Part shown: piece by piece, positions 6,251 to 62,225 of the stretch
Numbering within the stretch: position 1 is the first letter of the stretch
Layout: the number at the start of each line of letters is the position of its first letter
Sequence record: NC_023593.1
Strand: one strand, 5' to 3'
Length of the DNA: 64,000 bases
From: Escherichia phage KBNP1711
Translations under genes and position numbers: made by a program
Notes under the pieces: model-generated
The model's database searches: none
What the model saw: only the letters and a program-made list of their open reading frames with translations
What the model was told of the DNA's origin: nothing

Positions 6251-6259
6251 GGACACTGA

Positions 6260-6496
6260 ATGAATACACAACATCAATTCAATAAAGAGCATGCCGCCAA
6301 ACTGGCGGCTCTCAATCTTACAGGCAGTCTTGACGCAGCATTAGAGGCATTGAAAGAGAAACTCATGAAAGAAATTGTATCAACCGAGCCTCATGAGAAT
6401 AAGAAACGCGAAGATTGTTATCAAAAGTATAAAATGGTGGGTAGCTTAAAAGAGGTCATAAAAGCTGCTATCAATAGTGCAGGAGATGTTTCATAA
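6260..6496 (+). CDS. hypothetical small protein
   Basis: ORF track; AAGGA RBS; between portal and scaffold. Confidence 0.4.
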   Translation: MNTQHQFNKEHAAKLAALNLTGSLDAALEALKEKLMKEIVSTEPHENKKREDCYQKYKMVGSLKEVIKAAINSAGDVS

Positions 6497-32643: not shown

Positions 32644-33180
32644 TCACTCCCCTAAAAGTTTACGAACTTCTTTCTTGAATGTTTCATACTCTTCAGGGTA
32701 TTCAAACCCACACTCTAACATTGCATAGTGAACAACCTTAAGCAAGTCTTGAACCTTGTTCTTATCTTTGTGTCGATAAGCATACTTGATCATGTTACAT
32801 TGCTGGAAATTAAGCTGAGGGTTAGCTGCATAGAATTCAATAGGTTGAATCTTCTTGGAGTCAGGGTCATAATGAGCACCGCCAACCATTACATCTAGTG
32901 CTGGACTTCTTTGGCTAGTCTTCTCAGTTGTATTCTTAAAACTGACCACAGGAACAGAAGAGTAAACTATATACTCTTCCCCTACTGGTGGTTTTACTCT
33001 TAGTCCACGCATGGCATATTCAATCTTTATGTCAGCGGAACCTGAAGCGACCTCTTCAATAGATTTTCGATAGCTGTCAATAACTGCCCTTAGCATAGAG
33101 ATTGTTTTGGTCATATCTTTTACTTTCTCATTCAGTACAACAATCTCTGATTCTTTGAAATCGAACAAATTCATTTCCAC
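32644..33180 (-). CDS. DUF3310-like phage protein
   Basis: 'QPIEF...NMIKYAYRHKDK' resembles the DUF3310 signature (recalled). Confidence 0.3.
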   Translation of the reverse strand: MEMNLFDFKESEIVVLNEKVKDMTKTISMLRAVIDSYRKSIEEVASGSADIKIEYAMRGLRVKPPVGEEYIVYSSVPVVSFKNTTEKTSQRSPALDVMVGGAHYDPDSKKIQPIEFYAANPQLNFQQCNMIKYAYRHKDKNKVQDLLKVVHYAMLECGFEYPEEYETFKKEVRKLLGE

Positions 33181-35794: not shown

Positions 35795-35803
35795 TATACA
35801 TTA
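35795..35803 (-). promoter_or_regulatory. TAATGTATA motif (- strand)
   Basis: + strand 'tatacatta'; 58 nt upstream of SSB-like gene start. Confidence 0.4.
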
Positions 35804-35866
35804 CACCTATACCGATAAGAGTGCTATGTAGTATAAGCATCAGTGGTAGTAGATATTGACTACTAG

Positions 35867-35875
35867 TAATGTATA
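35867..35875 (+). promoter_or_regulatory. TAATGTATA motif (+ strand, faces away from flanking genes)
   Basis: Exact motif in the 414-bp intergenic region. Confidence 0.3.
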
Positions 35876-39284: not shown

Positions 39285-39766
39285 TCAATGTGTGTGATTC
39301 CAGTTTAATCCTATCTGACAATCAGATGCCAGAGGACATTCCATCTTGAGGTACTCACCAGCTTTCTTAACACAAAGCTCTGTAAGCTCTTTTAGCTTTT
39401 GTGCATCATTACGGTGAACAGAGAACTGCCCTTCATCGTGCATGTCAATAACCTTCGCACAACGAACACCATCACGCTCAATCCACTTGTTAAGGAAAAG
39501 CATGGCATACTTCATAACAATCGCACCAGCACTCTGTAATAGGGTATTCAGTGCTTTATGAACCATTACCTTACCTGTTGCATCACGTCTCATTGTAACA
39601 CGACGACCATCAACACCCAAGATATAACCTTGAGCTGCCTTCTCTGTCATACGTTCAATAAGAATTGCAATACAAGGATTCTCTGCCAAGAAACGTGCTC
39701 TCATTACTGCACCTTCTTCAGAGCCTCCACCAACGATAGAACCGAGCTTAGCATCACCTGCCCCAT
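39285..39766 (-). CDS. DNA polymerase (family A), exon 2
   Basis: 'GAGDAKLGSIVGG...ALNTLLQSAGA...HDE' matches the T7 DNA polymerase C-terminus; frame open upstream of track start 39704. Confidence 0.7.
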
Positions 39767-40547
39767 CAATAGTTCAAGCAAAGGCGCTACTCTTTGCTCC
39801 GTTCTCTTATGAACTGCTTACAGTTTCCTGTAAGATCGGACTATATCTTCATCTCCACCTTTACGTGCTGAGAGACAGGCGCTTCCGTAACACTTGTTAC
39901 GTACTCCCTTCCGGGATAGTCTCTGAACTTTCCGTGACACAAACTTTTCTACATAGATCAATGAACTGAGCATCAGATAGTTTACCTTTTGCATTATTCA
40001 CTTCCCAAGTTACCCATTGGACATTTCCAATTTCGTAACCTTTCGAATTATCCTTCCTATCTAAAGAAAGTTTATTCGGATGTCCGCTGACGAAAGATAG
40101 TGAATCTCCTGTCAAGGCACATTTGTAGTTTTGCTGAGAAAGAAGCTCGAATAAATAGTCTTGAGTAATCGTGAACTCAAAACCCCTTTCTCTAGCTCTG
40201 TGATGGGAGTTGTGATATCTCTCACGAACCGCTCCACCCCAAGTTTGTCGATATTGTCCCATAGCAGCAGATGCTGCACTTCTGTTTCGACGTCTCCACT
40301 CATTTGAAGCAATGAGAGCACAATTTTTTACATTGACATTGCTTTCCATCTTTACTCTTAGATGAATTATGGAAACTGTCGAGTGGCTTTTCTTCGCCAC
40401 AGCTTGAACATATCTTTGTCATAAACACCTCCTTGTGTTGATGTTTATGTCACGGCTTAGCTGCTGATTGGCATATCTTTCGACTTAGCTTTCCAGCAAT
40501 TCACCTGTTTTGCTTCTGCACATTTCTATGCAGTGAACCAATTATTT
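39767..40547 (-). mobile_element. group I intron (putative) interrupting DNA polymerase motif B
   Basis: Exon 1 ends on U, intron ends on G; splicing restores 'KTFIYAFNYGAGD'. Confidence 0.55.
39897..40400 (-). CDS. intron-encoded HNH homing endonuclease
   Basis: 'SLDRKDNSKGYEIGNVQWVTWEVNNAKG' HNH-type motif; ORF lies within the intron. Confidence 0.6.
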   Translation of the reverse strand: MAKKSHSTVSIIHLRVKMESNVNVKNCALIASNEWRRRNRSAASAAMGQYRQTWGGAVRERYHNSHHRARERGFEFTITQDYLFELLSQQNYKCALTGDSLSFVSGHPNKLSLDRKDNSKGYEIGNVQWVTWEVNNAKGKLSDAQFIDLCRKVCVTESSETIPEGST

Positions 40548-41910
40548 AGTTAAAGGCATATATAAATGTCTTCGCATTGTCACGAGTAGGAAGACCAGCA
40601 AGTCTCTGATTATGAGAATGGATATCACCTTCTAACAGAATATCACGATACATAACAGCAGAAGCTAAACCACGTTCAGCTAATGCTTTCTTACCAGCGT
40701 TACCTTCTGCAATTGCTTCAGCAAGCATGTCTCTACACTCTTTAATGAGGTAGTGAGCAAGCATACGAAGCTCTAATCCAGAACCATCATAACCTAGGAA
40801 GAGTTCTCTACCAGCTGGTACATAATACTTATATAACCCTACTGGTTTGTCTTTCTTTCCGGGTTTTCCACGTTCGTAGATAACGTTTGTATTTTTTCGT
40901 AAGTAACACCCATCAGGGATATTGTTGGTAATGATGAAAGGATAGTTATGACTATCATCTGTGGAGTAGTTAGATTGAAATAAACTCCTACACTCGTGAC
41001 CAAACAGACCGCGAGAAGGAATATTAACAACAATGCGATGTTTAAAACGAAATGTCGGAGTAGCGCAGCTATTAGCTTCCGCTGAGAGTTTACCATCTGG
41101 ACGTTCCTTATCAATCAGTCCATTAATCAAGCCTAGTCTGTGAGCCGCTACAACACGTCTCTTAAGCAGACTTCCCACCTTACCTAGATCACCCTCAAGA
41201 CCTTCTTCAAGAGTCTCTTCGAGGTTTGTAGGAGCTGTGGGCCACTTGTTCGAAGTAGCTAATGCTCTCTTAATTTCATCAAAGGTTACAGGTTTCTTCC
41301 TGTTAGGGTTTAAACCTAAACCAAAGACATAAGCCTTCATGTAGTTGACAGTTTTGTGACGAAAGTGCTTATCCAAGAATTTCTTGATATCAGCATCAAC
41401 CATCTGAGCTGTCTGTCGCTCTTTCTCATTGCCACGCATCCAAGAGTTGTACCATTCTTGATACGTTCCACACTTACGCAAGGCTCGCTTAATCTCAAAT
41501 GTGTTCCAAGGCTTCTTAGATGTATTAAATTCTGGAGGAAGAAAACCTTCATCCATCAGTGCTTCTTTAACTCGTGCATCCTTTGATGGGTCAAAGTCAA
41601 CATACTCAACACAAGTAAAAGCTCCACCGATATCTTCCCTCTTTAACCCCACTCTGTCACAATATAATTGAGGCCACTTCTGAAGAGCACCAGTCTTCTT
41701 AAAGGGTTTCATGTAAGTAGAACCATCAACCCTCATCTTAGGTAACAGAGGAATCAGCTCTCTGTCGATGTTAACGATAATCTCTCTGAGAAGGTGAACA
41801 TACCACCGTGCATTCCTCCGATTAAAGTTGACACCACTCTTCGCTTGCTTTGAAATTATATCAGCGACAGTCATCTCCGTTAAGAACGGAAGTACATCAG
41901 GGTTCTCCAT
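40548..41910 (-). CDS. DNA polymerase (family A), exon 1
   Basis: Motif A 'DGSGLELRMLAHY'; start of motif B 'RDNAKTFIY'; AAGGAG RBS. Confidence 0.7.
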
Positions 41911-41925
41911 CACCCTCTCCTTTTA

Positions 41926-46608: not shown

Positions 46609-46669
46609 ATTCACATCCTTATAAAGAAGTTCGCCCCACCTCGGATTAGGAGACAGGGCGGAGGTTTGA

Positions 46670-47254
46670 TTAGTAAGACACGTCACCACTGGAGTGGGAC
46701 ATGTTGCTCTTGACGAAGTAACAGAACTTTCCAAGACCTTCATTAATTTCTTGAAGCATACTCTGATCAACTGGATAGGTGCACAAGTCTGAATCAAACT
46801 CGTCCATCTTCTCAATGATACACATAAGAGTCATGCACATGTCAGAAAGCATACCGTCCATGTCGAGATCAGCGTTACCTTCTCGGAACCAAGCACAACC
46901 AAGATAGCTACTAGCTGTTGCATCCACTTTAATGCAGTGATAACGCATTCGCTCTGCTACCCGATCACCAGTTTCACGAGCATAATCTTCTAGTTCATCG
47001 AACATACCGTGAACACCTTGGAAACCAGCTCCAGAGACGTTCCAGTGATAGTTCTTTGATTTGATGTGTAGAAGTTCAAGGTTAGCCTGCACACCACACA
47101 GGATGTGCTCTAGGCTGTTACCGCTAATCAATTTATTCATTCCCTCTAGACGAGAGATAGAAGAGTCAGTTGTAGAGAATGGGTTGCTAGAACCCACTCG
47201 TGTCAGTTCAGGTAAGTCGAAGACATTATTATGCATTAGGTTCATCTCCTTCAA
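46670..47254 (-). CDS. Dps/ferritin-like protein
   Basis: 'ANLELLHIKSKNYHWNVSGAGFQGVHGMFDELEDYARETGDRVAERM' resembles the Dps di-iron site helix pair. Confidence 0.45.
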   Translation of the reverse strand: MKEMNLMHNNVFDLPELTRVGSSNPFSTTDSSISRLEGMNKLISGNSLEHILCGVQANLELLHIKSKNYHWNVSGAGFQGVHGMFDELEDYARETGDRVAERMRYHCIKVDATASSYLGCAWFREGNADLDMDGMLSDMCMTLMCIIEKMDEFDSDLCTYPVDQSMLQEINEGLGKFCYFVKSNMSHSSGDVSY

Positions 47255-47630: not shown

Positions 47631-47840
47631 TCAGTAGTAAATTACTTTAGACATAAAAGAACCAGTGTTAGGGTCTTCATGCCAGCGATGTATGTCAGCG
47701 CTTTTTACTATTGTGCCCAGAGTCTTCAACTGTTTCTTAGCAATACGAGCCTCTTTGCGAGTGTCAAACAATTTGATGTTATCTTTTCTCATATGTTGCT
47801 CAAGATCCCAAACAACATGAATAGCCCACATCTTTTTCAT
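47631..47840 (-). CDS. small protein, paralogue family member
   Basis: Tandem array member. Confidence 0.4.
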   Translation of the reverse strand: MKKMWAIHVVWDLEQHMRKDNIKLFDTRKEARIAKKQLKTLGTIVKSADIHRWHEDPNTGSFMSKVIYY

Positions 47841-48055
47841 TAGTAATGTACCTTTCCGCTGATATAAATACGGCCTGAGGTATACTCATAGCCCTTGAGA
47901 ATCTTAACAGAGGTAGTGGAGCCATCGTTTAGTGCACAGATTGACTTCTTAAGATTGCGTGCATCTTCTCGTGTCTTCTGGTAGGTCATGGTCACACCCC
48001 CACTCTTCCACTCTGTTTTAACTAACCAAACTATTTTCATAAGACCTGCTCTCAT
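47840..48055 (-). CDS. small protein, paralogue family member
   Basis: Tandem array member. Confidence 0.4.
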   Translation of the reverse strand: MRAGLMKIVWLVKTEWKSGGVTMTYQKTREDARNLKKSICALNDGSTTSVKILKGYEYTSGRIYISGKVHY

Positions 48056-48267
48056 TAGTAGTACACCTTGCTACCAGCCATAAATGCCCCTGTTGAGTTT
48101 ATCATGGCTTTGCTGATAGTAACTTTCTTACACCGTAAACATACCTTCCAGTTCTTTTTACAGATTCGAGCTTCTTGTCGAGTGTTACAAAAAATAGCCG
48201 AAGATATTTCTTGGGTGTTGTTATCATAAACACGAACACACCACTTTTTCATTGTTCCAAACTCCAC
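48055..48267 (-). CDS. small protein, paralogue family member
   Basis: Tandem array member. Confidence 0.4.
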   Translation of the reverse strand: MEFGTMKKWCVRVYDNNTQEISSAIFCNTRQEARICKKNWKVCLRCKKVTISKAMINSTGAFMAGSKVYY

Positions 48268-48467
48268 TATCTGTCAACCGATTCAGGGACAAACTGCATT
48301 ACACAGACCTGATTACGAGGAAGGTTTATTTCACAAGCGGCTTTTCTATCAGCAACCTTAGATGACGAGTTAGGGCCAATTTGAGCCATCATTAATCCCA
48401 TAGCTAACATGCCGAGGATTACACCAATTGCTAAAGATGCTACAGTTTCTTGTTTCATCTTGATCAC
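48267..48467 (-). CDS. small membrane protein
   Basis: One hydrophobic segment 'LAIGVILGMLAMGLMMA'. Confidence 0.3.
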   Translation of the reverse strand: MIKMKQETVASLAIGVILGMLAMGLMMAQIGPNSSSKVADRKAACEINLPRNQVCVMQFVPESVDR

Positions 48468-48997
48468 ACCCCTTTAGATGCAACTACACCTTCAGAATTA
48501 TTATAACGACCCTTCACTGCATATGAATGTTCCCCTGCATGAGAGTGCTCAAACATAACCATCTGACCAACACGCATACCAGCACGAACTCGTAAGCTAT
48601 GATGCTTGGTTACGTTATGGAATTCAAATGTCAGCTTACTGCTATTAAACCCTGCGTCTGCCCACCCAGCGTGGAGATGGTTCAAGCCACAACGAGCCAT
48701 CGAAGACCGCAGGACAAACAAACTGGAGATGTTATCTGGAAGGTTAAACTCTTCCATCGAGTGAGCTAAGAAGAATTGTCCCGGAGTAATGATAATACCG
48801 TCTTCAGGGATTTTTACTTCTTTCCACTTGAGATTTTCTTTCGCATCAATGTCAACAATCCCATCAGCCTGTTCTTCAATAAGGATAGTATCACCAATAC
48901 GGATATCCACACTAGCAGCGTTAACATACTTATGCTCCGCATCCAGAAAACCGTTATCGATAACGTCGTGTAATTCCATGCTTCCTAATAAACTCAT
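48464..48997 (-). CDS. dcd: dCTP deaminase (dCTP deaminase/dUTPase superfamily)
   Basis: 'VDIRIGD', 'LRSSMARCGL', 'HAGWADAGF' match E. coli Dcd motifs (recalled). Confidence 0.65.
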   Translation of the reverse strand: MSLLGSMELHDVIDNGFLDAEHKYVNAASVDIRIGDTILIEEQADGIVDIDAKENLKWKEVKIPEDGIIITPGQFFLAHSMEEFNLPDNISSLFVLRSSMARCGLNHLHAGWADAGFNSSKLTFEFHNVTKHHSLRVRAGMRVGQMVMFEHSHAGEHSYAVKGRYNNSEGVVASKGV

Positions 48998-49011
48998 TCT
49001 TATTCCTTATG

Positions 49012-50292
49012 TTAATCTGTGATACTGTCGCTTTCGTCAACCCAGACTGGATTATTAATCTGTCCTAAACGACGAGCTGATGTTTCGTTAATAGAGTTAA
49101 CCCCTGCTGTGCGAGGGTTTGTGTACCACGGTCGGACTATGCTACCCGACTGAATTGCTTGGTTTGCTTCTACATGCCACCTGTTTGATACCGTGTTGGC
49201 TTCAAAGTTACCACCCGCTCCACCACTGATAGGCACAGCTTGAGCTGGTTGATTTACTCGGTTAGTTCCTGCCCCAAAGGCTGCTGCAAATTCAGACACA
49301 CGTGCACTAAATGAAGAACGAGCACGCTGAGGAGGTGATATATCATTTCGTGTATCTACTGCACGAGGCATAGCCCAAGTATCATCTGTTGAGATATCAG
49401 GGGTAGGCTCTTGCTCTAGAGGTTGAAGATTAGCTGTCCATTGACTATTCAGTATACGATAGAAATCTGCACCATAACCACTTCGGATAACATCCTCTCT
49501 GACACCAAAGAAGCGACTGATATCCCCACCGATTCGGGCTAGTTTGTCATTGTATGCAGGTATGATTATTCCACCCTCTGTCACTAAATCAGAGACACGA
49601 CTTGTTGTAAGTGGTGAAGTGATCCAACAATAATAATCAGTAATGTGACCATCGTATCCGAAGAATGCAATCTCTGCATCAGGCCATTTCTTGTGGACAT
49701 ATGCCACTTCACGGTTAGAACAAACAGGGATTGCACCTGTTTCAGTCATTGCATAGAAGCCGTCAGAAGAGAACCAAAGTGAATCTAGTGCTAAGAATCC
49801 ACGACACACGCTCGGGAAAGTAGCAGCCAGCGCCCCAAGTGAGGTAGGTTCATTGAACATTAACTGAATCTTTGCACTCTGATAATTAATCTCTAGGATA
49901 TCTACAAAATTCAAAGAAGACCCAGGGGCATATTGATTATTACTTCGTCCAATATCCTGCTCAATGAGAAGAGATCTTGTTTCAACACCATGAGCCTCTG
50001 CCCACTCTTTGAAATCTTCAAGGAACAAGCGAGCCTTAGCTCGCCACATCGACCGATCAGTTACAGACTGTCTCGGCAATCCACCCTCTGTAGTGATGAG
50101 AAAGATATCAATGTCGTGAGGTTCACGCGTCTGAAAGATTGCATCCCTAACAGCACCACCTGCAATGATAGGGTACACACCATCAGGGATTAAACGGTTT
50201 GCAATCAACTCGTTAATTAACGTAAGACCAGACACAAGCTGCGGACTATCATCAATCCGACGACGAATTAGTGCATTAGGGATATTATACAT
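49012..50292 (-). CDS. nucleotidyltransferase (CCA-adding/poly(A) polymerase head-domain type)
   Basis: 'IIAGGAVRDAIF...HDIDIFL' matches the 'GGxVRD...DxD' active site. Confidence 0.5.
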   Translation of the reverse strand: MYNIPNALIRRRIDDSPQLVSGLTLINELIANRLIPDGVYPIIAGGAVRDAIFQTREPHDIDIFLITTEGGLPRQSVTDRSMWRAKARLFLEDFKEWAEAHGVETRSLLIEQDIGRSNNQYAPGSSLNFVDILEINYQSAKIQLMFNEPTSLGALAATFPSVCRGFLALDSLWFSSDGFYAMTETGAIPVCSNREVAYVHKKWPDAEIAFFGYDGHITDYYCWITSPLTTSRVSDLVTEGGIIIPAYNDKLARIGGDISRFFGVREDVIRSGYGADFYRILNSQWTANLQPLEQEPTPDISTDDTWAMPRAVDTRNDISPPQRARSSFSARVSEFAAAFGAGTNRVNQPAQAVPISGGAGGNFEANTVSNRWHVEANQAIQSGSIVRPWYTNPRTAGVNSINETSARRLGQINNPVWVDESDSITD

Positions 50293-50841
50293 TTACATTT
50301 TCCAATATAAAGATGGGGGGTCATTTGGGTCAAAGTTTGCAATATGGCAAAGATATTTATAAACCTTAACCGTTAAGTTTACGTCCTGTTCACAATAAGT
50401 AAACATGTCCTCTGTAAAGGCATCCCATGCTTCTTCCTGTTCACCGTAATCACCCTTAAGCTCTTCTAAGAACTCACCCCATTGCTTTAAGCCATGACCT
50501 CTTGGGCCATGTCTAGGGTCGCCTTTCGGATACTCAGGACTGTCACCAATACGGTCAGGTTTAAGATACCGACTCAGACATAAAGTGTCTAGGACGTTGA
50601 ATTTGTAATCAATCAAATCAGGGTACATCTTCTTCAGAGCACATAAGTCGAAGTCAATAACGTTATGACCTACAACAACATCAGCCTCTGTAAGTTTCTT
50701 GATACCCTCTTCAATCTGGTGAGGGCGAAATCCCCACCGTTCACCAGTTGATATATCGAAGATAAAGATACACCATACGTTTGTGATATTGTCGTACAGT
50801 GCATCACTCTCAATATCAAATGCGTAGACTTTCTTTACCAC
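50293..50841 (-). CDS. DnaQ-like 3'-5' exonuclease
   Basis: Exo I 'YAFDIESD', Exo II-like '[11 protein letters not shown]'. Confidence 0.55.
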
Positions 50842-52625
50842 GGGCTTTTCTCTCCATCTTGAGCAAGAAGTGATGCTGCATCCTCTCCATTTGTCAGCGA
50901 GAATGGGTTTTCTTCATCAATTTCATGATCTTCACGCTCAAGCAACCGTCCCGTCTCTCCTACATACTTCGTATAGCACACCCCTGTTTGTCCATAGTTA
51001 CGCTCTTTGAGGAGTCGTATAATGGAGAGGTTCTTAGCCAGACCATCTGCTTGTTTGTCACGTTCAAAACCGATGATACATTGACACCAACGCATAAGAG
51101 AACGAGAGCCAGTAAACTGTACCTCTCGAACCTGACCACCTTCTTCATGAGGTGCACCACCTGCCGGAGCATTGAGGTGAGATAGTACGAATGCTGTGAA
51201 GTTTAATTCTTGACACATACCAGCAAGCTCGGAAGCAATCTTACTGATTTCAGTGTTAATCTCTGAAGGTGTTAAATGAGACACCAGAGCGGTAATGTTA
51301 TCAAGGATGATAAACTTACACTGGTTTTCAACAACCCAGAAACGGATACACTGTTTAATGTCGGCCCATTCATTCTGACCAAAGTTATCATAGAGGAAGA
51401 ATTTATCTGCATATCGAAGAGCTTCGTTACGCAATGTATCTTCATCATACTCAACATCAGGTCTATGGAAAGGAATAGATGCTGACTTGCCTGCAATGTT
51501 CTTAACGGACATTCCGACCTTCTCTTCCAAGAAGAATCCGCCACCATTAAAACCATGCTCAAGGCAAAGCCAAGCAACCAGTTCATGTGCAATCAATGTT
51601 TTACCAGAGCCTACACCACCACCAATTGCTACCATTTCTCCCCAACGAATACCGTAGGTCATCTCATTAAGAGTTTTCCACGGGTATGGGATACCCCACT
51701 CTGCTTTCTTCAGAGCATCATCTAAGCAATCAAAAACAGTTACAGCACCAGCTGGAGATTCCCGCTTCGCTGAATATTTAAGAATGTTAAACAATTCCTG
51801 ACCACGACCAGAGAGGAGCATATCATTCGCATCTTTAAGCTCTTTCTCAACACCGTTGTACTGGAAAGAACCTTTAGGAATACGAGCAAACTTCACATGT
51901 GGGAACAGAGCACGCCCTTTGGTAAGAGCAATCTCACCAGCATCATCGTTGTCCATACAAAGGACAACCTCTTCAAAACCATTCAAGAACTCACGGTTGC
52001 GAGACAGAACGGAAGAAATCGACCCTGCACCGAACGGTAAAGAGACACACGCTGGTTTAATGTTTGTTGCATTTGTAAAAGCTGTAAGAACGTGGAAGCC
52101 AGACATGCAAGACAAGGGGTCTTCAAAGATGAAGAGCTTCTTATTATACACATCTCCACGTTTAGCCTGTGCCATACCAAACAAATCAGCTTCTTTCACA
52201 CTACCGATGTAATAAAACTTTTTACTATCAAGTAGTTTAACCTCGTAACCGACAATGTTTCCGTCACGTTCACGAGGAAAGAAGTAACTGTCCGGTGTCT
52301 GACCATCAGTTTGACTGAGACCAATACGACATTCAAAACGCTCTGATACAGCTTTAGGGATTAATCGACGAGTGAGTTCTCCTTGAGGTAACTCCAAGCA
52401 ATCATCCAAGACCTCTCGAAGTTCTTCAGGGGACAGCTCTTTCTTTTCATTTGGTGTAGGTGTCGTGCCTTTCTCAAAGACTTCGTAATTACCACACCGG
52501 TTACAACTACCCCACTCTTCACCGGATTCCTCATTACGGAAGAGAATCATGTGATTGTGGGTTTTATCACGACCATGAGAGATGCACTCCTTACAGCCTG
52601 TGTCTCCCAAAATGATCTTTGACAT
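50835..52625 (-). CDS. primase-helicase (T7 gp4-like)
   Basis: N-terminal Zn ribbon (CxxC...CxxC), TOPRIM 'MDNDDAG', Walker A 'GGGVGSGKT'. Confidence 0.75.
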
Positions 52626-52662
52626 GCTCTATCCTCCTTGGATTCTCCTTGAGCAAACTACC

Positions 52663-52872
52663 TTACTTATAAAAACTTCGAATCATGTCCCAGATTTCTT
52701 CCTGCTGGACCCTAAAGAAAGCTAAACGTGTCGATGTACGTTCGATAAACTCTTCACTATGCTTTTCTCTATCTAGCATACTGACAAGCTTTTCGTATTT
52801 ATTGATCTTCCATCGCATTTTTAAATAGTCTGATTCTAGTGTCCTTAACCTCTGACACTCAATCAAATCCAT
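52663..52872 (-). CDS. hypothetical small protein
   Basis: ORF track. Confidence 0.3.
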   Translation of the reverse strand: MDLIECQRLRTLESDYLKMRWKINKYEKLVSMLDREKHSEEFIERTSTRLAFFRVQQEEIWDMIRSFYK

Positions 52873-53807: not shown

Positions 53808-55025
53808 TTAAAAGTTTACTACTTCACCATTAACGGTAGTTACTGATGCAAGACGACGAACACGACCAATCTGTTCACGACTAATTGGAGTGTTCCAACC
53901 AGAGCGATAGAAGTTGCGACCGCAGAAGAATACAACAACATTAGAAGCAATCCGTCCGTAGTTACGATCAGGGTGGTTGATATTCGCTAGGTAATATCCA
54001 CGGGTCAGGTTTGCATTTTCATTAATGGGACGAGCATTTGGTGCAGTTGTTTCAGCTTGCATCACTTCTTGAACTTCTTCAACAACAGGCTCAACTGTAG
54101 GAGTATCACCAGCTAAAGCAAAGTTCTCATCAGCAGCCTCTTCTGCATCATCTTCCAGCTCCACAGTTTCCTGAATAACTGGCAGAGGGTATGCTACACG
54201 ATACTCAGGGTTTTGACCACGGAGAGACTCAACATACTGCAAGAAGTTGTGCTGGTAAGTTTCCAGAGTCGTACCAGTCAGGCCCGGAGCGGTGTTAACT
54301 TCTAACACCCATGCTTCCTCGCCTTTACTGATAATGTCAACAGCACCAAAGTTAAGACCGAGTGCTTGTACTGCTTTGTGCGCTTGAATCAGAACCTGAT
54401 CATTTGGTGAATCATTAAAAGCATTTGAATAAACCCAACCAGTGTGATGATTACGAACATCTTCACGATAGTCAGGGTTATCACGATACCCATTACGACG
54501 AATCTTCTTCTGTACGTAAGTAATAACACCTTCAAAGACATGAACACGCCATTCACGACGTGGGCCAGTGATTGCTTTCGTGTACAGAGGAGCCTCTGCA
54601 ATACCTTCACGAGTAAGACGAACAGTGATACCTTCACCAGAGTGACCGTTCAGTACACCACGTTCATAAACAATACTATTTCGGTTCCAGTTCTGTGCTT
54701 CTTCACGATTAGTGGTATATTCAACAGTCTTGACTTCCGCAAGACGCATAGTATTGAAAGCTGCAACCTTGTTCGCCGCACGATTCAACGCTGCTACGTT
54801 GTTCAGGACCGTTGCACCTTCGAAGAAGGATTCTTGATAACGACGGTTTCCGTAGTTGATGATCACATCACCAGAACGAGCACGGAATCGGCTGGTTCCA
54901 TCAGACAGAAGAGCCATTGCGTTAGCATTGATTCGGTTGTCACGGAGATGTTGATTCAAGCTGGACACCAGAGCATTAACAGAATCAGAAGGGCCATAAG
55001 GGAGAACACGGATACGAGTAGTCAT
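53808..55025 (-). CDS. ATP-grasp ligase (RimK-like)
   Basis: 'GAVDIISKGEEAWVLEVNTAPGL' matches the RimK C-terminal ATP-grasp motif. Confidence 0.6.
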   Translation of the reverse strand: MTTRIRVLPYGPSDSVNALVSSLNQHLRDNRINANAMALLSDGTSRFRARSGDVIINYGNRRYQESFFEGATVLNNVAALNRAANKVAAFNTMRLAEVKTVEYTTNREEAQNWNRNSIVYERGVLNGHSGEGITVRLTREGIAEAPLYTKAITGPRREWRVHVFEGVITYVQKKIRRNGYRDNPDYREDVRNHHTGWVYSNAFNDSPNDQVLIQAHKAVQALGLNFGAVDIISKGEEAWVLEVNTAPGLTGTTLETYQHNFLQYVESLRGQNPEYRVAYPLPVIQETVELEDDAEEAADENFALAGDTPTVEPVVEEVQEVMQAETTAPNARPINENANLTRGYYLANINHPDRNYGRIASNVVVFFCGRNFYRSGWNTPISREQIGRVRRLASVTTVNGEVVNF

Positions 55026-55027
55026 TT

Positions 55028-55261
55028 TTAGATACCTTTAAGTTTAAGAATTTCGTTGCGAGTACGTTGGATACGTTCTTCAAGAGTGTGATAATCAAAG
55101 ATGCAGATCTCTTCTGCTTCATCAGAAGGTGCATCCATTAAACCCATAGCAATCGGATACACTTTTCGCTGTTCCGTTGTCATGTTCTGTAGCCGGAGTC
55201 GTTGATACTCCAGCAGGGTAATTTTCGGCTTGTTAGTTTCCTTGCTTGACATGAGGCTCAA
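55028..55261 (-). CDS. hypothetical small protein
   Basis: ORF track. Confidence 0.3.
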   Translation of the reverse strand: MSLMSSKETNKPKITLLEYQRLRLQNMTTEQRKVYPIAMGLMDAPSDEAEEICIFDYHTLEERIQRTRNEILKLKGI

Positions 55262-55466
55262 CCTTGATACCTTTCAGTTTCACATAGTCAGCCAGCACGT
55301 TGTTAATAACTGTTGGGAAAGGAATCTCAACAGGTGCATTAACTAACCCACCAATACCCTCTTGCATCCACTTCTGGATTGCACGAAGGTTATCACATCC
55401 TGTGCTTGTCATTGGAATACGGCGAGTGGTTACAACGTTATCCAACATCATCTTACGAATTTCCAT
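55233..55466 (-). CDS. hypothetical small protein
   Basis: ORF track. Confidence 0.3.
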   Translation of the reverse strand: MEIRKMMLDNVVTTRRIPMTSTGCDNLRAIQKWMQEGIGGLVNAPVEIPFPTVINNVLADYVKLKGIKVEPHVKQGN

Positions 55467-55476
55467 AATACACCTC

Positions 55477-57495
55477 TTAATTATGACCTTTACAGTGCAC
55501 TGAATCGCACACCACTTGATTGGTATTGTTTAGTGTGCAGAGTTCTGCATCACGCCACGGAATCTTTTTAAAACAGACTGCACAAAACCCCAAAGTAGAC
55601 CAGAGGGCTTTTGTGAAGGTTGCTGAACGGTTTCCATCGGAAGAGGCAACTGTTCTGGTAATTGAGACTTTTGACTCACGAAAGGTTTCCGCTACTGGAG
55701 CGGATTCCTCCTTTGGGGTAGTCACTGCAATAGCATAAATACCACCCCAACGCTTCTCAATGTAAGCACCGAATACATCTTCCAGAGTGATTTCACTCTT
55801 ACGCTTGGTTGAGGATTCCATGACAACCATGTTGTCCAGAATCTTTTGATCGACACGAAGAGCTACTTCAGGACGTCGAGCACTTGTTGTATCAACACAC
55901 TTAGTCCAAACATAACCCTCTTTCAGGGTGACTTGAGTTGCTTGCTTCTTTGCTTTATTAGCACAGATTTTACAAACATCGTCACCACGAAGTTTACTGA
56001 ACTCTTCATCAAATTCAAAGTCAGACTTCACTTCACCGCACACCGAACAAACACCGATAGGAATCTCATCCTCTTCAACGTCTTCTACTTGCTTCTGGAT
56101 AGAATCAAAACAAGCTTTATGCCAATATGCTTGGTATGCGAAGATTGCACTTGGGGCTTCTTTCCAGTCGATGTGCTTATCACAGCCACCACAATCACCA
56201 TGGGAATGGGCTTCCCAGAACTTACGAGTGATAGTCACCCCATTCTTGCTGACAAAACTATCCTCTGCATCAAAAGGGATATCATCATCGAAATCAGCTG
56301 TAGTGCTTTCCGGCTCCTTTTTCGACAAGTCAAAGAAGTGACCAGAGATCAACACCAAACGAATCATGCTATTAACTTCAGAAATACAGCCAACCGTACC
56401 ACGGTAAACCATATGCTTATTCTTAAGAGCAGCTTCGTAATCAGTTTGCAGGATGTTATGAACATCACCCTCAATATACTCTTGAGCTTTGTCATCATAA
56501 ATATAACCAACCATCTTACCGCGATCGGTATCTTTATAACAAACAAACTCGTGAGGAATAATATCAACCTGCATATCACGACGGATATCAACACCTTTGT
56601 CAGATGCGATCTTGTTTTGTTTCAAGATTGCTTCACGACGACGTACATCACCTGCGGTTACGCCGGGCTTTCTTTGCTCGTCGCTGTTCCCGTTTACGTA
56701 ACTTTTTATCCCGCTTGAGTGATTGTTGCTGTAGCTGTTCGAGTAATAACTTCCCCAACGCGTTGCTACCGTAAAAACCGGGAGTTCATGTACGACCTCC
56801 TCTACCAAAGTCATCTTGTTGTCAGAAACATCAAAGATGTACTCTGTACCGACTTTACACTCAAAGTGCTCATCGATTCGATTCTTGTGGCTCTTAGAAC
56901 GCTGAAGAATCCACATCAACATAGCTTCTTCTGAAGCACCAAACCATGAAGTTCCCAGACGGGCCAGATGGAATGGACGCTCATCGTTGCGAATGATGTG
57001 AAGACGGTTATCACTTGCATCATGCCAGATCAGAGTGAATGCACCATCCAACTTCTGAATAGTCTCTGCTGCACCAATCTTGTTAATAGAGTGGCAGATG
57101 TTCTCACTATCAACCTCAAAAACCTTACTGTCAGGCAGAAGGTCTTGATCAACTAAGGTTCCGTTATGAACCAGAGTGATGTTTCCGTGAGAGAATGGGT
57201 GAGCGTTACGTGAGTTAATAGCACCTTTCGTAGCATGTCGGCTATGACCAACAATCCATGAAGGAGGCACTGTGTAATTAGTAAGGCCAGTTGTCAGCTC
57301 GGTGTACTCTTTCTGTAACATGAAAGCATAGGAAGGTAGTGCTTCTTTGTAAGAGAACACAGATCTTTCGCTTTTACGCTGACCGAAAATACCAGTTGAG
57401 TGTTGACCACGAAATACACCAGCATAAAGAAGCTGGTTGTAAACATCTAAGTCATAACTTGAGAGGCTTCCACCTGCTAATACGATACCACAAAT
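55477..57495 (-). CDS. class-II (Ntn) glutamine amidotransferase fused to a Cys-rich C-terminal domain; probable AUU start
   Basis: Frame open upstream of track start 57360 encodes 'CGIVLAGG...FRGQHSTGI'; AGGTGG 7 nt before ATT. Confidence 0.55.
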   Translation of the reverse strand: MCGIVLAGGSLSSYDLDVYNQLLYAGVFRGQHSTGIFGQRKSERSVFSYKEALPSYAFMLQKEYTELTTGLTNYTVPPSWIVGHSRHATKGAINSRNAHPFSHGNITLVHNGTLVDQDLLPDSKVFEVDSENICHSINKIGAAETIQKLDGAFTLIWHDASDNRLHIIRNDERPFHLARLGTSWFGASEEAMLMWILQRSKSHKNRIDEHFECKVGTEYIFDVSDNKMTLVEEVVHELPVFTVATRWGSYYSNSYSNNHSSGIKSYVNGNSDEQRKPGVTAGDVRRREAILKQNKIASDKGVDIRRDMQVDIIPHEFVCYKDTDRGKMVGYIYDDKAQEYIEGDVHNILQTDYEAALKNKHMVYRGTVGCISEVNSMIRLVLISGHFFDLSKKEPESTTADFDDDIPFDAEDSFVSKNGVTITRKFWEAHSHGDCGGCDKHIDWKEAPSAIFAYQAYWHKACFDSIQKQVEDVEEDEIPIGVCSVCGEVKSDFEFDEEFSKLRGDDVCKICANKAKKQATQVTLKEGYVWTKCVDTTSARRPEVALRVDQKILDNMVVMESSTKRKSEITLEDVFGAYIEKRWGGIYAIAVTTPKEESAPVAETFRESKVSITRTVASSDGNRSATFTKALWSTLGFCAVCFKKIPWRDAELCTLNNTNQVVCDSVHCKGHN

Positions 57496-57569
57496 TTTCT
57501 AATCCACCTGAAGGGTAAACCCTTTCATCTAATTAACCTTTAATTGTGCCCCTTTCGAGGCACCCATTG

Positions 57570-58670
57570 TTACAGCAGTCGTTCTAACTGAATTTCCAAG
57601 TGGTCTGGAATATACTCAGTGACGTTGTTATCAGAGACGCCAGATTCACGCATCATGTTGAGCATGTTACGAATCTGCCCTTCTGTTGCTTCACGAGTTT
57701 CACTAATCTCTGTTTCATACAGAGCCATGATCTCGTTATGAACATCTTGAGCATTACCACGGACATATCCGAGGAAGCCATAGAAGTCAGACATATCACG
57801 AAGGGATACAACTACCGACCCACTACTATCAAGAGTTTGTAAACGAATACGCCCAACCTGACGCACAGATCGGTTACGACAGAACAGGATATCACGAGCC
57901 AGACGATAACCGCTATCAAGATCTTCGTGTCTTGGGGTGTAGTCCAGAGGTAGGTGCGGGAGCATAGGGTCAAAACGAACCCTGTTGAGCATCTCAACAA
58001 ACTCTTCATTGTCCATCTCTGCATTTTCAACTGCTAATTTCTTAAGAACCAAGAAGCGGTTTACCAGATTTAACAGCTGACCTTTCTTCCACTTAGGCTC
58101 TGAGATACGGAACTCAACAGAACCGAACTGAGCCAGAGGGAGTAGGTTGAGTGATGTGTACTTATCCCAACGGTCGACGATATGTCGGAAGAAGTTCTCA
58201 CCTTCGTAGTTAAATGCTTCAGAAGCGTTCATTACTTGAGCCTGAACCACTGCAAAAGCAGGACAGAAATTACTACGGTAACGGTGATAACCAGAGCACT
58301 TAAACATCAATGCTTCATAGAAAGTCCACCCAAGGATAACTTTCTTAACGATATTGCTATCAGCATCTCGCATATCCATATGAACGTGAGTGGAACATCG
58401 CCAAGTCCCTTCTGCTTCGGACTCCATCACTGCCTCACTCAGATTGTTGATAGCGTCAAACAGTTCTACACCATTGTAAGGGCGAGAACAGACCATTTCA
58501 CATCCGTTGCGAAGCGAGCCATCCTCTGTACATTCCCACATATCTGCTTCGATATGATCGTCACCTTCAAGCTCCAGCTCAATACCAATACCGCATTGGA
58601 ATGCGATACTCGGATGTGCTTCACTCAGACGATTACTACGGTATCCAAAAGCTTGCGCTACAGTTGTCAT
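57570..58670 (-). CDS. carboxylate-amine ligase (GCS2/YbdK-like amidoligase)
   Basis: 'GIGIELELEG', 'EDGSLRNGCEMV', 'STHVHMDM', cf. YbdK. Confidence 0.5.
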   Translation of the reverse strand: MTTVAQAFGYRSNRLSEAHPSIAFQCGIGIELELEGDDHIEADMWECTEDGSLRNGCEMVCSRPYNGVELFDAINNLSEAVMESEAEGTWRCSTHVHMDMRDADSNIVKKVILGWTFYEALMFKCSGYHRYRSNFCPAFAVVQAQVMNASEAFNYEGENFFRHIVDRWDKYTSLNLLPLAQFGSVEFRISEPKWKKGQLLNLVNRFLVLKKLAVENAEMDNEEFVEMLNRVRFDPMLPHLPLDYTPRHEDLDSGYRLARDILFCRNRSVRQVGRIRLQTLDSSGSVVVSLRDMSDFYGFLGYVRGNAQDVHNEIMALYETEISETREATEGQIRNMLNMMRESGVSDNNVTEYIPDHLEIQLERLL

Positions 58671-59281
58671 AACGACTCCACTAACTCCACAGTGTATTGG
58701 TTAAAATCACTTTCAATATGCTTGAACTTGTCAAGCAGTTGTACGGTCTGACGACCACGGCTGTCATATCCAGCACTAAGAAGCACACGACCAACATGTG
58801 CACCTTTATAATAAACAAGACCATCAGAAGGATTGATGAAGATAAAGCGAGTCAACAAGCCTTCAAAGGATGGGTTAAACAGGTTATAAACCATCTCACC
58901 AGAGATGTTACGACCTAGAGAAGTTACGCCACGGAGTTTGTTACCCATCAACCCCTTAGCTCGCTGACGAACTGGATTGATGTGAGTCCAACTTACCATG
59001 TTACGTCCGTGTTGAAGATAACCAACATCAGGGGATTCCAGAATCAGGTTAGGGTTGAAAACCCCAATCTGAACTGTTGTACGGTTAAACCCTGAGTCTG
59101 TTTTAAACCAACGCTCTGCTTCGAACATCAAAGCCATCTCTGCTTCATGAGAGAAGTCATCACGAGAGAACTCACCTTGTTGGAATACGTTCATAACAAA
59201 CAGTGGGATGTTTAAGTTCCCACGTCTTTCAGCAATCCATGTCCCACAATAGTAATGAGAGAAGTCAGTTACTAAGCTCAC
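58667..59281 (-). CDS. hypothetical protein in amide-ligase cluster
   Basis: ORF track; ATGA overlap with upstream gene. Confidence 0.4.
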   Translation of the reverse strand: MSLVTDFSHYYCGTWIAERRGNLNIPLFVMNVFQQGEFSRDDFSHEAEMALMFEAERWFKTDSGFNRTTVQIGVFNPNLILESPDVGYLQHGRNMVSWTHINPVRQRAKGLMGNKLRGVTSLGRNISGEMVYNLFNPSFEGLLTRFIFINPSDGLVYYKGAHVGRVLLSAGYDSRGRQTVQLLDKFKHIESDFNQYTVELVESL

Positions 59282-59290
59282 GATAACCCC

Positions 59291-60097
59291 TTACGCTACC
59301 TGTAAACGTTTCAAGAACACATCTGCTTCACGAACATCGTTGGTGTTGATGATCTGGTGCAGCTTTTCAATCGGAAGGCGAGAGTGGAGGCTCATCAAGA
59401 ACTCCATGTCGCTATTTTGTACAACCTTGTCAACTTGATCGTACACGAATTGACGATCTTCTTTCTTGCCAATCCAGAAGTTCGACAGAGAGCGATACTC
59501 AATGCCATAAGGTTTGTAACGGATTGCGGATGCTTTACCGTACAGCTCTTTACGTCGAGTATCACCATCCATCAGAACAGCAGGCAATGACAGGAAGTAA
59601 TCACACAGAACGCCCAGCATCATCTGAACCTTCTTATTCACATCCAGAGAGCCAGTGACACCAATGTGCACATGACCACCTGCTGTACGCAAGCCCTTGT
59701 TCTCTGAAGTTGGAGAAGCATTCTTTTGACCAGTGAATGCGTTGAAGTCTGGAGTACAACCAAACACGAAAGCGGACGGATGGAATGATTCCAATTCCTC
59801 TTTAGAGAAGATATGAGAACTTACACCCAGAGCCGCTTCCATGTCCTGTTTCTTCAGAACTTCGTTGGTAAGATCAATACCGCGCTGAACGTTGTCATTA
59901 AACGCTTCAAAACCTTGTTGTGGGTTGATATCAAACTCAGCCAGCACGTTGTCTTCTTGGAGACGTACATCCTTAGCCAGATCGATTTTATTTTCTTTAG
60001 AACAACCCAGCTTGCCAGCAACAGAGGTGATGATGCCAGAAGAAGTACGAACAAACATCTCTGGGTCCGTTCCAATTAAAAAGATGCGCTTAGTCAT
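59291..60097 (-). CDS. carboxylate-amine ligase-like (second GCS2-like paralogue)
   Basis: 'LIGTDPEMFV' and 'GGHVHIG'; GGTGGA RBS before ATG 60097 (track ORF to 60178). Confidence 0.45.
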   Translation of the reverse strand: MTKRIFLIGTDPEMFVRTSSGIITSVAGKLGCSKENKIDLAKDVRLQEDNVLAEFDINPQQGFEAFNDNVQRGIDLTNEVLKKQDMEAALGVSSHIFSKEELESFHPSAFVFGCTPDFNAFTGQKNASPTSENKGLRTAGGHVHIGVTGSLDVNKKVQMMLGVLCDYFLSLPAVLMDGDTRRKELYGKASAIRYKPYGIEYRSLSNFWIGKKEDRQFVYDQVDKVVQNSDMEFLMSLHSRLPIEKLHQIINTNDVREADVFLKRLQVA

Positions 60098-61019
60098 TAT
60101 AGTATTCCACCAATTCTTTAAAGAGGGATATGATTGTTTCTTTGTTGCTCTCCATATTAGAGCCGCAACGACTTTCAATACGTTCTAAGAAACCATTTAC
60201 ATTGATGTTAGAAATCTTTTCATCAAGAGATGAACGTTTCCAACCAGTGCTCATAGACCAAACTCTCAAAAAGGTACTCATTGAAGAGTACATCTCTGCG
60301 TTTTGGTTTCGACGACGAGCAATACGACGAAGAGCTGCACGGTCATGGTTTCGGATATACCCTGATGTGTTATCACCTTCTCCGACTTTGTTTTGCAACC
60401 AAACGTCGGTTGAAAACTCACCTGTATTGCAAATAATCGGAAGAAATGCAAATGCTGGTAAATCATGCGGTAAATAGATAGATGTTGATTCGTCAGTGGA
60501 GTCATTAACTCTATCAAAGTTAAGCTCCCCAAAGAAGTCCTTACTTACCCCAGCAAGAGCTAGAGCTAATCCAACACGACGACGGAATAGCCATTCTTCT
60601 CTATCATCAACTCCCTCTGAAAGAAAATCCATAGATTCATACTCGCAATCGAGATAGCTACGGAAAGTCATTAGTCCTGTAAAAACTTTATCTGCTGCGT
60701 GTTCACGAAGATCAACCTCTACACTATTAGCAGAAGTTATTGTGAACATATCTTTGTACATAGAACAGGAGTTCAGTACATCAGCAGTATCCACCAAATG
60801 AGACTCAGTCTCATCCATGTTGCAGTGGGGCCAGTAGTTAATCTTACCCATGTGCGCTGTGAAGTTATCCAAGCTGGTTCGAGTACTCAGGCCGTTAATG
60901 TCACGAGTGCTAAAGTTGTGCATAGAGTTGTGGATACCGAAACAAACTCGGCTCGCAAAACTCTGCTCACCCAACATATCACTAACTTCTACAGGAGCTA
61001 ATGTTGTGGAAATTGCCAT
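60090..61019 (-). CDS. hypothetical protein in amide-ligase cluster
   Basis: ORF track. Confidence 0.4.
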   Translation of the reverse strand: MAISTTLAPVEVSDMLGEQSFASRVCFGIHNSMHNFSTRDINGLSTRTSLDNFTAHMGKINYWPHCNMDETESHLVDTADVLNSCSMYKDMFTITSANSVEVDLREHAADKVFTGLMTFRSYLDCEYESMDFLSEGVDDREEWLFRRRVGLALALAGVSKDFFGELNFDRVNDSTDESTSIYLPHDLPAFAFLPIICNTGEFSTDVWLQNKVGEGDNTSGYIRNHDRAALRRIARRRNQNAEMYSSMSTFLRVWSMSTGWKRSSLDEKISNINVNGFLERIESRCGSNMESNKETIISLFKELVEYYND

Positions 61020-61031
61020 TGTCTTTAACCT

Positions 61032-62225
61032 TTAATTTCCTAAGAAAAGTTTCGTGAGAATTGAATCCCACTCCGTACTAGGCAGCACATCAAAGCTGCT
61101 ATTATTTGACAAATTCGACTGTTGAAAGTGGCGAATCAGTGTGTAAGTGTTAACACGGTCATTACCAAATCGAGTATACAACAACTCGTTTCGAGTCTTG
61201 TCTGATAGGGAAATAGCTTTGGCAAAAGCTACAATCAGCATAGGCTCTTTGAGGGCACGATCTTGAAGGGCTTCTGGTTGAATAATAGGTAAGAACATCG
61301 AGTTGTTTACATACAGCTCATGCTCTTCGTGTCCGGGAACGTCATACCAAATACTCTGGTAGTCTTCATCACGAAAATGTCCTTCACCAGCCATATATGA
61401 CGGTTGACGCCACGCGGTCTGGCGAGGTTCTGCCATATTAGCTCCGATACCCACTGTGTACAGTGTTACAGGGAACAGGCAGTTGTCATATTCGTTACCA
61501 GTAAAGGCAACTCGTACTTCACCAAACAGGTTCTCTTTTGCGTTAATCAATCGAGAATAGGCAAGAGCTTGTAACGGAGACCAATTATCCATGTAGAGCT
61601 TATCAAGGAAAGTCCACACGTTTGCTTGTTCGTCTTCTTGATAGAACAGACGATTCACCATAAGGTAGAACAGGCAACGATCAGCAGGAACTGGTTCAGA
61701 TACATCTTCTGTTACTACACCCATAAAACCTTTTTCATGCCAAACAAGACATGAAGGACGATCTTTATCCATGAAAGCTTCAAGCGCTTCCATAACTGAC
61801 TTGACAGTTACATCAGGACGTTCACGATATTCAGCCCAAAGCTCAACTGCATTCTTAGGCTTTTCATCCCCTACATCAGCGTGATAGAAAGCATATTGGA
61901 AGGAGATGATGTTGTTGCTCCCATCCTTTCCACGCATAGGGATGTGGGTTCCAGAGTTCCAGATAATACGAATATCTTCCATTGACATATTTCTGCTCAG
62001 GACTTCATCTCTGCCTGAGCTTTGCATCAAGCTATAGCTGCTATCCCAAACATGGACATACTGCGTCCAGCCTTCATTGGCTTCGTAGGTAATGGGGTCG
62101 TAATAGTCGTCATCTTCATCACAATCATCACCACCATGGTAGTTGTCGTGCTGAAGAAATCCATAGCAAGGAGGCCAGACTGTTAATACGTTGTCGTGCT
62201 TATCCTGCAATGTTACTGGAAACAT
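61032..62225 (-). CDS. hypothetical protein in amide-ligase cluster
   Basis: ORF track. Confidence 0.4.
   Translation of the reverse strand: MFPVTLQDKHDNVLTVWPPCYGFLQHDNYHGGDDCDEDDDYYDPITYEANEGWTQYVHVWDSSYSLMQSSGRDEVLSRNMSMEDIRIIWNSGTHIPMRGKDGSNNIISFQYAFYHADVGDEKPKNAVELWAEYRERPDVTVKSVMEALEAFMDKDRPSCLVWHEKGFMGVVTEDVSEPVPADRCLFYLMVNRLFYQEDEQANVWTFLDKLYMDNWSPLQALAYSRLINAKENLFGEVRVAFTGNEYDNCLFPVTLYTVGIGANMAEPRQTAWRQPSYMAGEGHFRDEDYQSIWYDVPGHEEHELYVNNSMFLPIIQPEALQDRALKEPMLIVAFAKAISLSDKTRNELLYTRFGNDRVNTYTLIRHFQQSNLSNNSSFDVLPSTEWDSILTKLFLGN

Follow-up and report, generated by a model that had tools for sequence, protein, structure and literature searches.

The 64,000-nucleotide stretch of Escherichia phage KBNP1711 DNA analysed here (sequence record NC_023593.1, hereafter the window) comes from a phiEco32-like podophage of the subfamily Gordonclarkvirinae and encodes, on the minus strand, a 426-residue protein that is apparently a catalytically competent, minimal class II-type nucleotidyltransferase (NTase). 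In its first ~200 residues the fold is of the Pol-beta kind and most similar to the head domain of CCA-adding enzymes and poly(A) polymerase, a well-supported assignment. Profile comparisons also give good support for regarding the protein as a distinct branch of a phage-specific, class II-derived superfamily that includes small stand-alone phage NTases and Gad2, the sole member with an experimentally demonstrated phenotype. An initial annotation, made from the DNA letters alone, described a phage enzyme of the CCA-adding/poly(A) polymerase type that could repair tRNA 3' ends, polyadenylate transcripts or provide a step for neighbouring modification genes. That interpretation has the fold right, but neither the family membership nor the functions it suggested have been established. 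The NTase-fold annotation is already in the literature, with ‘nucleotidyltransferase’ being the label of the orthologs in RefSeq and BASEL records, and what adds interest is the link to Gad2, the extreme divergence of the alleles amid conserved replication genes, and the presence of the gene in the experimentally tractable BASEL phages.

The active-site motif quoted in the initial annotation is present as IIAGGAVRDAIFQTREPHDIDIFL and includes GGAVRD-x9-DID (amino acids (aa) 45-62), which falls within the class II motif A definition GGxVRD-x(8-10)-DxD. Its key residues (G45, G46, A47, R49, D50, D60 and D62) are invariant in 24 sequences covering all allelic types and align to the GGAVRD...DxD of CCA-adding enzymes. 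When the window is translated in all six frames, GGx[VIL]RD-x(7-11)-DxD is matched just once, inside the NTase open reading frame (ORF), while 300 mononucleotide shuffles yielded one match, or ~0.003 expected per window. E134, invariant in the same alignment and aligned with a glutamate of a small stand-alone phage NTase, is probably the third catalytic carboxylate. The protein thus has what defines the Pol-beta NTase superfamily: an alpha/beta fold in which hG[GS]...DxD occupies neighbouring elements and a third carboxylate lies on a strand next to them. The beta-hairpin strand AKIQLMFN is common to Gad2 (IQLIH) and the small NTases (vQ.m). Searches with the predicted structure agree with these motifs, as the best matches of the head are CCA-adding enzymes and poly(A) polymerase, with structural alignments spanning 144-169 residues; both the fold and the invariant aspartate pair (D60/D62) on which the original assignment depended were therefore found. 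A phmmer search against PDB sequences returned nothing relevant.

Beyond the fold and motif A, the assignment to the CCA-adding/poly(A) polymerase type does not stand. Profile search places the protein firmly in phrog_12715 (E 6.5e-164, with aa 1-425 aligned to positions 1-396 of the 457 in the profile), but the match to the Pfam PolyA_pol head (PF01743) is sub-threshold, with 13.5 bits over only 23 residues against a gathering cut-off of 23 bits; among orthologs the highest score is 20.2 bits. Against phrog_2244, the family of phage tRNA-NTases, the match is only E 0.16. The ribose-recognition motif RRD (motif B) occurs nowhere in the NTase domain of any allelic type, and the invariant F159-P160 at its position shows that it is absent. 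Motif D, EDxxR(x)nR, is also missing: no allelic type has ED...R, the nucleotide-templating residues, and the helix at this position reads IPVCSNREVAYVHKKWP, in which Y198, K201 and K202 are invariant. The register of motifs B and D was read through Gad2 (FDFT versus RRDLTINA of CCA-adding enzymes), which is a low-confidence alignment, and hhalign comparisons with the single E. coli CCA and poly(A) polymerase sequences (3-11% probability) were used for motif register only. For the RNA-binding neck, body and tail, no Pfam RNA-binding domain was found at E up to 10; after ~aa 205 the model has four short helices followed by 140 disordered residues. We found no tRNA gene in the window, and relatives carry one tRNA-Arg elsewhere in the genome. 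Acidity was considered as an argument against RNA binding and dropped, the isoelectric point of the domain being 4.6-5.4 and that of the E. coli CCA head and neck 5.3.

Gad2 has been described as the second anti-Gabija protein of SPbeta-like phages, ~400 aa long with a predicted NTase domain and toxic on expression (bioRxiv 10.1101/2023.05.01.538930). We built a Gad2 alignment from Table S10 of that study and compared it with the NTase family using hhalign. The two match at 93.3% (E 2.8e-7) over 129 columns ending at Gad2 residue 163, in an alignment that joins motif A, the IQLM strand, F[PD]..C.G and the P..S..R...Y..K helix. The small NTases bridge both, matching the NTase family at 99.5% (E 1.8e-22, 138 columns) and Gad2 at 98.9% (E 4e-17), and PHROG cross-matches connect families 12715, 1614, 4400 and 18122/27100/16176. 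Precomputed matches to the Pfam Gad2 family PF26128 exist on some family members, including the phiEco32 type, and are weak (E 1e-5 to 1e-3). When 1.84 billion representative proteins were searched exhaustively with the profile, only 31 representatives matched at E <=1e-10, with the NTase family confined to phiEco32-like phages, where orthologs are present in 96 phage records. Beyond it lies a fringe of ~200-aa proteins with PolyA_pol head matches. Among searchable papers, none joins Gordonclarkvirinae and Gabija.

The genomic contexts of the wider superfamily vary. In Phapecoctavirus, Pseudoalteromonas phage J2-1 and Pseudomonas putida phage Emajogi, members are found near DNA polymerase, primase or ligase genes; a Zobellviridae vibriophage is a weaker case. 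The Gad2-family NTases of the Vequintavirinae 18-1-2 (6001-7338) and KpS8 (5001-6458) lie directly downstream of a 16-22-gene tRNA array and are followed by Rz-like spanin and terminase genes. This adjacency was considered as a functional clue and judged weak, being limited to Vequintavirinae and absent from three other lineages.

The NTase gene is also exceptional in its divergence. Compared with phiEco32 and ECBP2, the primase-helicase of the same operon is 94-95% identical, the dCTP deaminase 95-97% and the exonuclease subunit 79-85%, whereas the NTase has 33% identity to phiEco32 and 30% to ECBP2, the lowest among positionally conserved genes of at least 150 aa in the window and below the tail fibres. 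Across 13 loci, catalytic domains of different allelic types share 27-45% identity whether the accompanying helicases are 94% or 77% identical. Within types, the ratio of nonsynonymous to synonymous substitution rates (dN/dS) is 0.04-0.14 in the catalytic domain, indicating purifying selection, and a more relaxed 0.26-0.52 in the tail. Synonymous divergence of the gene is decoupled from that of its flanks in both directions: between phiEco32 and SGF2 it is 0.55 against 0.15-0.19 in the flanks, and between ECBP2 and Bas86 it is 0.12 against 0.34-0.82. In a DNA search with the 4.3 kb at 48400-52700, which is 96% identical to Escherichia phage EP335 and 95% to BASEL phage Bas89, relatives cover ~68% of the query in two pieces, and the missing ~1.4 kb approximates the 1.28-kb NTase gene. 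The Bas89 NTase is 91% identical to that of the window while its dCTP deaminase (11595-12149), beside which an HNH endonuclease gene is inserted, is only 57% identical; the comparison places a mosaic junction at the boundary between the two genes. These patterns would be read most simply if the phages keep several old alleles of a working enzyme and pass them between backbones as a cassette, a behaviour typical of genes facing variable host factors.

The ORF is a genuine coding gene, based on its orthologs, low dN/dS, conserved start, the arrangement of ribosome-binding site and stop codons, and mass spectrometry of the SU10 ortholog. It lies exactly where the initial annotation had placed it, with the strand now added, and is the syntenic ortholog of phiEco32 gp73 (annotated hypothetical) and SU10 gp74, with a start codon position conserved among orthologs. 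The SU10 product was seen by mass spectrometry with one peptide and placed among early products (PMC4281155). The order primase-helicase, exonuclease subunit, NTase and dCTP deaminase is kept in every family representative with readable context, and in relatives the exonuclease-subunit and NTase genes overlap by 4 nt. The long divergent C-terminal region noted in the initial annotation is there as well: residues 288-426 have predicted local distance difference test (pLDDT) scores <50 in the AlphaFold2 model and are hardly alignable between orthologs, and tail length ranges from 14 to 214 aa across the family. All types have an A/S-G-[VIL]-[STN]-[FLI] element near the C-terminus (RGISF, AGVTL, AGLTF and SGVSF-COOH), possibly a docking peptide.

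Within the window there are 6 exact copies of TAATGTATA, which we take to be the phiEco32 gp36-type promoter motif, against 0.48 expected; two of them face each other at 35795-35875. Since the minus strand has no copy from 43260 to the right end of the window, the location of the NTase gene is consistent with an early/replication transcription unit, as in SU10 (PMC4281155). Co-transcription of the gene with the replication genes, among which it is tightly packed, is well supported. Scans of the surrounding DNA for sigma-70 promoters and for terminators gave, overall, only what chance would give. A strong terminator-like hairpin at 46632-46660 (minus strand; 11-bp stem, 7 GC pairs, T-rich tail) stands right after a Dps/ferritin-like gene (46670-47254) and is likely the end of the transcription unit containing the NTase gene.

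Features of the NTase gene, its protein and its surroundings in the window
Feature	Protein residues	Window coordinates	Strand	Description
NTase coding sequence	1-426	49012..50292	-	Complete, 426 aa plus stop codon; member of phrog_12715
Folded region	1-285	49438..50292	-	N-terminal helical lead, Pol-beta/class II-like head, family-specific small helical subdomain (~aa 205-271)
Motif A, IIAGGAVRDAIFQTREPHDIDIFL	42-65	50098..50169	-	G45, G46, A47, R49, D50; predicted metal-binding pair D60, D62
Beta-strand FVDILEINY	129-137	49882..49908	-	Holds E134; strand from AlphaFold2 model
Beta-hairpin strand AKIQLMFN	140-147	49852..49875	-	Q143 and M145 invariant
TFPSVCRGF	158-166	49795..49821	-	Equivalent of class II motif B (RRDxTINA) and Gad2 FDFTVCMG
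IPVCSNREVAYVHKKWP	188-204	49681..49731	-	Equivalent of class II motif D (EDPLRxLRxxRF) and Gad2 YPxxSxxRVxKYxxKGY
C-terminal tail	286-426	49015..49437	-	Intrinsically disordered, hypervariable; rich in Ala, Ser, Asn, Thr, Pro, Arg
Tail motif SSFSARVSEFAAAFGAG	326-342	49267..49317	-	Weakly predicted helix; related strings in other allelic types, e.g. ARARDFARAFGSGR
C-terminal segment AGVNSINETSARR...VWVDESDSITD		49015..49107	-	Contains the A/S-G-[VIL]-[STN]-[FLI] element
Primase-helicase		50835..52625	-	First of four-gene block helicase, exonuclease, NTase, dCTP deaminase
DNA polymerase 3'-5' exonuclease subunit		50293..50841	-	Upstream neighbour; stop abuts NTase start (TAAATG)
dCTP deaminase		48464..48997	-	Downstream neighbour, 14 nt past NTase stop; AGGA ribosome-binding site in spacer
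TAATGTATA copies		9279, 21063, 26300, 35867	+	Precede structural-gene blocks and DNA polymerase block
TAATGTATA copies		35795, 43252	-	Precede structural-gene blocks and DNA polymerase block

For the function of the NTase, we tentatively favour template-independent nucleotidyl transfer to a hydroxyl acceptor in host interaction or counter-defence, a proposal that may well prove wrong. Two-metal catalysis would transfer a nucleotide from a nucleoside triphosphate (NTP) or deoxynucleoside triphosphate (dNTP), with no template, onto the acceptor, most plausibly a nucleic-acid 3' end and possibly a DNA end or replication intermediate. The enzyme would then act in the manner of Gad2 and not in housekeeping tRNA repair, with the variable tail serving as a docking element and the allele diversity as the mark of an arms race with variable host factors. 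Several points weigh against this proposal. The homology to Gad2 is remote and covers only the ~130-160-residue catalytic core, excluding the Gad2 C-terminal domain; no Gad2 Pfam match is precomputed for the allelic type found in the window, and neither NCBIfam nor PADLOC has a match for the protein. Since the mechanism of Gad2 itself is not known (review PMC12904381), its function may not transfer. Known anti-defence genes are usually accessory and located in variable regions, while the NTase is a strict core gene in a fixed slot, and because that slot belongs to replication and nucleotide metabolism, a role in replication or the nucleotide pool fits equally well. Computed over the whole gene, within-type dN/dS is <1 and gives no demonstration of ongoing positive selection, and whether the acceptor is DNA, RNA, protein or a small molecule is something we purely infer.

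A more specific form of the counter-defence proposal is that the NTase may act on DNA 3' ends, in the phage genome or in replication intermediates, as a template-independent terminal (deoxy)nucleotidyl transferase, tailing or capping them so that Gabija-like end-sensing nucleases would fail to engage. This idea agrees with the chemistry of class II enzymes, with RRD having been lost, with the setting among replication genes and with relatives being toxic; we still consider it unlikely in this exact form. If true, DNA-end tailing would contribute to the unusually broad defence resistance of Gordonclarkvirinae, and the swapped, deeply diverged alleles and variable docking tail would be the traces of an arms race with host factors able to detect the enzyme or block it. 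The NTase connects a validated anti-defence protein, Gad2, with abundant, therapeutically used coliphages whose resistance is unexplained. It represents a Gad2 relative in a conserved slot, predicted to be catalytically intact, in phages that grow on E. coli K-12 (BASEL Bas86-94). That the most divergent positionally conserved locus is a core gene can also serve as a flag for host-interaction genes inside ‘housekeeping’ operons.

A different protective role would have the NTase and the adjacent dCTP deaminase make or install a non-canonical nucleotide or DNA modification that shields the genome from restriction. The two genes are adjacent in every relative, the most distant included. In class II enzymes RRD has a role in nucleotide choice, and its absence is compatible with the use of dNTPs. 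The BASEL study (PMC11990801) describes Gordonclarkvirinae as highly resistant to restriction-modification (RM) systems in the absence of known modification or anti-restriction genes, and suggests that the dCTP deaminase together with the NTase could modify the DNA and so account for this resistance; those of its passages that were consulted report defence sensitivity for Fun/Z only. Restriction sites in the window give a mixed picture. EcoRI (14), EcoRV (34), EcoKI (8), EcoP1 (115), HindIII (30) and HpaI (26) sites are near expected counts, which favours a modification since site avoidance cannot explain resistance to EcoRI, EcoRV, EcoKI and EcoP1. On the other hand, six-bp palindromes number 636 against 1065 expected from composition, eleven GC-rich palindromes (e.g. 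GGATCC, GAGCTC and AGGCCT) are absent, and there are 8 Dcm CCWGG sites against ~76 expected and 130 Dam GATC sites against 240; the strong avoidance of GC-rich palindromes and Dcm sites shows that the DNA has been under restriction pressure. The phage also encodes ThyX, which gives the dCTP deaminase an ordinary role in dTTP supply, and a partner of so conserved a deaminase would not be expected to have exchangeable alleles at 30-40% identity. These genomes were assembled by standard sequencing, a further point against modification, and no DNA-modification pathway known to us involves a class II Pol-beta NTase. We searched the literature for restriction digests and nucleoside analyses of DNA from phiEco32-like phages and came across none of relevance. 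Overall, we regard protection by modification as improbable, about on a par with DNA-end tailing.

Readings that involve no direct protection of the DNA appear less likely still. An RNA 3'-end enzyme, acting in tRNA CCA repair after damage by host defence, in maturation of the phage tRNA-Arg or in RNA tailing/polyadenylation, would be of modest interest if it were an ordinary one, and is quite unlikely given that RRD and EDxxR, which define NTP and C/A selection, are absent, as is a body/tail tRNA-binding domain, and that the PolyA_pol and phrog_2244 matches are so weak. Moreover, the window has no tRNA, a tRNA array lies next to superfamily genes in a single phage lineage only, the host has a cca gene of its own, and such allele diversity is unexpected for a housekeeping RNA enzyme. 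Slightly more doubtful is a replisome accessory with no defence role, for instance one performing terminal addition at genome ends or primers while tethered through its tail to the split DNA polymerase. The abutting or overlapping junction with the exonuclease-subunit gene, the fixed position between primase-helicase/exonuclease and dCTP deaminase, and the polymerase, primase or ligase neighbours of superfamily members in other phages all point this way, as do the short motifs recurring near the tail C-terminus, which are reminiscent of docking tails of phage replication proteins. However, the replisome components of the operon are 79-95% conserved as compared with 30-40% for the NTase, and the 14 to 214 aa range of the tail is hard to square with a fixed replisome contact. 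Least probable among these readings is nucleotidylylation of a protein or small molecule, either as an AMPylation-type change of a host or defence protein or as synthesis or consumption of a signalling nucleotide.

Other loci in the window also differ from their counterparts in relatives. The DNA polymerase gene is split into ORFs at 40546-41913 and 39285-39704 (minus strand), with a 167-aa ORF between them (39897-40400) that has no counterpart in phiEco32 or ECBP2; Bas89 is annotated with a two-piece polymerase with an endonuclease inside, and the arrangement resembles the insertion of an intron- or intein-type element with a homing endonuclease in it. Three tandem, paralog-like ORFs of 69-71 aa at 47631-48267 (minus strand), ending in ...VIYY, ...KVHY and ...KVYY, correspond to phi32_69-71, one of them being 97% identical to phiEco32 and the others 41-52%. 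The early region (60090-62225 and 53808-59281, minus strand) contains ATP-grasp, glutamine amidotransferase, amidoligase, COOH-NH2 ligase and gamma-glutamyl cyclotransferase genes. The adjacent large ORFs 60090-61019 and 61032-62225 of this region, with 45-49% identity to phiEco32/ECBP2, are the most divergent large conserved genes after the NTase. In the structural module, a 344-aa ORF at 20728-21762 (plus strand) is unusually divergent (62% identity to phiEco32, 43% to ECBP2). Beside the sigma-factor region, a 178-aa ORF at 32644-33180 (minus strand) has a weak match to phiEco32 gp34 (27% over 110 aa) and is absent from ECBP2.

Among known systems, class II tRNA nucleotidyltransferases and poly(A) polymerase I share with the NTase motif A and a third carboxylate on a neighbouring strand, yet they have motifs B and D and the neck, body and tail RNA-binding domains, where the region after the NTase head differs. 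MenT/AbiEii-type toxins, which act on tRNA 3' ends, have a similarly minimal Pol-beta fold with no dedicated RNA-binding domains, and their toxicity is paralleled on overexpression by two NTase relatives, Gad2 and gp22 of the P. putida phage Emajogi. The closest sequence relatives outside the NTase family are the stand-alone ~200-aa phage NTases (phrog_1614/10174; phrog_1614 E 5.9e-6), which include the phAPEC8 ‘putative tRNA nucleotidyl transferase/poly(A) polymerase’ and H6UK10 of Aeromonas phage phiAS7. They are also matched by Foldseek in BFVD and, comparably to the NTase, often lie near DNA polymerase genes; they differ in being half the size, in lacking the helical subdomain and disordered tail, and in retaining F-D at motif B.

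Gad2 (PF26128, phrog_18122; Bacillus phage SPbetaL7) is, like the NTase, a phage-encoded protein of ~400 aa with an N-terminal NTase core, and the two have IAGG...DxDIaF, IQLM/IQLIH, F[DP]..C.G and P..S..R...Y..K in equal order. Of the elements invariant in the Gad2 alignment (AGG, DxD, FDxT, HxxF and P...R...Y), the NTase too has AGG, DxD and P...R...Y, while FD is replaced by FP and HEDF is missing. Gad2 for its part has lost the RD of GGxxRD and kept FDFT and HEDF, while the NTase has kept R49-D50. Gad2 has a folded C-terminal domain (~aa 230-400) with no counterpart in the NTase, whose C-terminus is the disordered tail. Their genes also differ in setting, as the locus in SPbeta phages holds gad1 or gad2, and in some phages neither, whereas the NTase is a fixed core gene.

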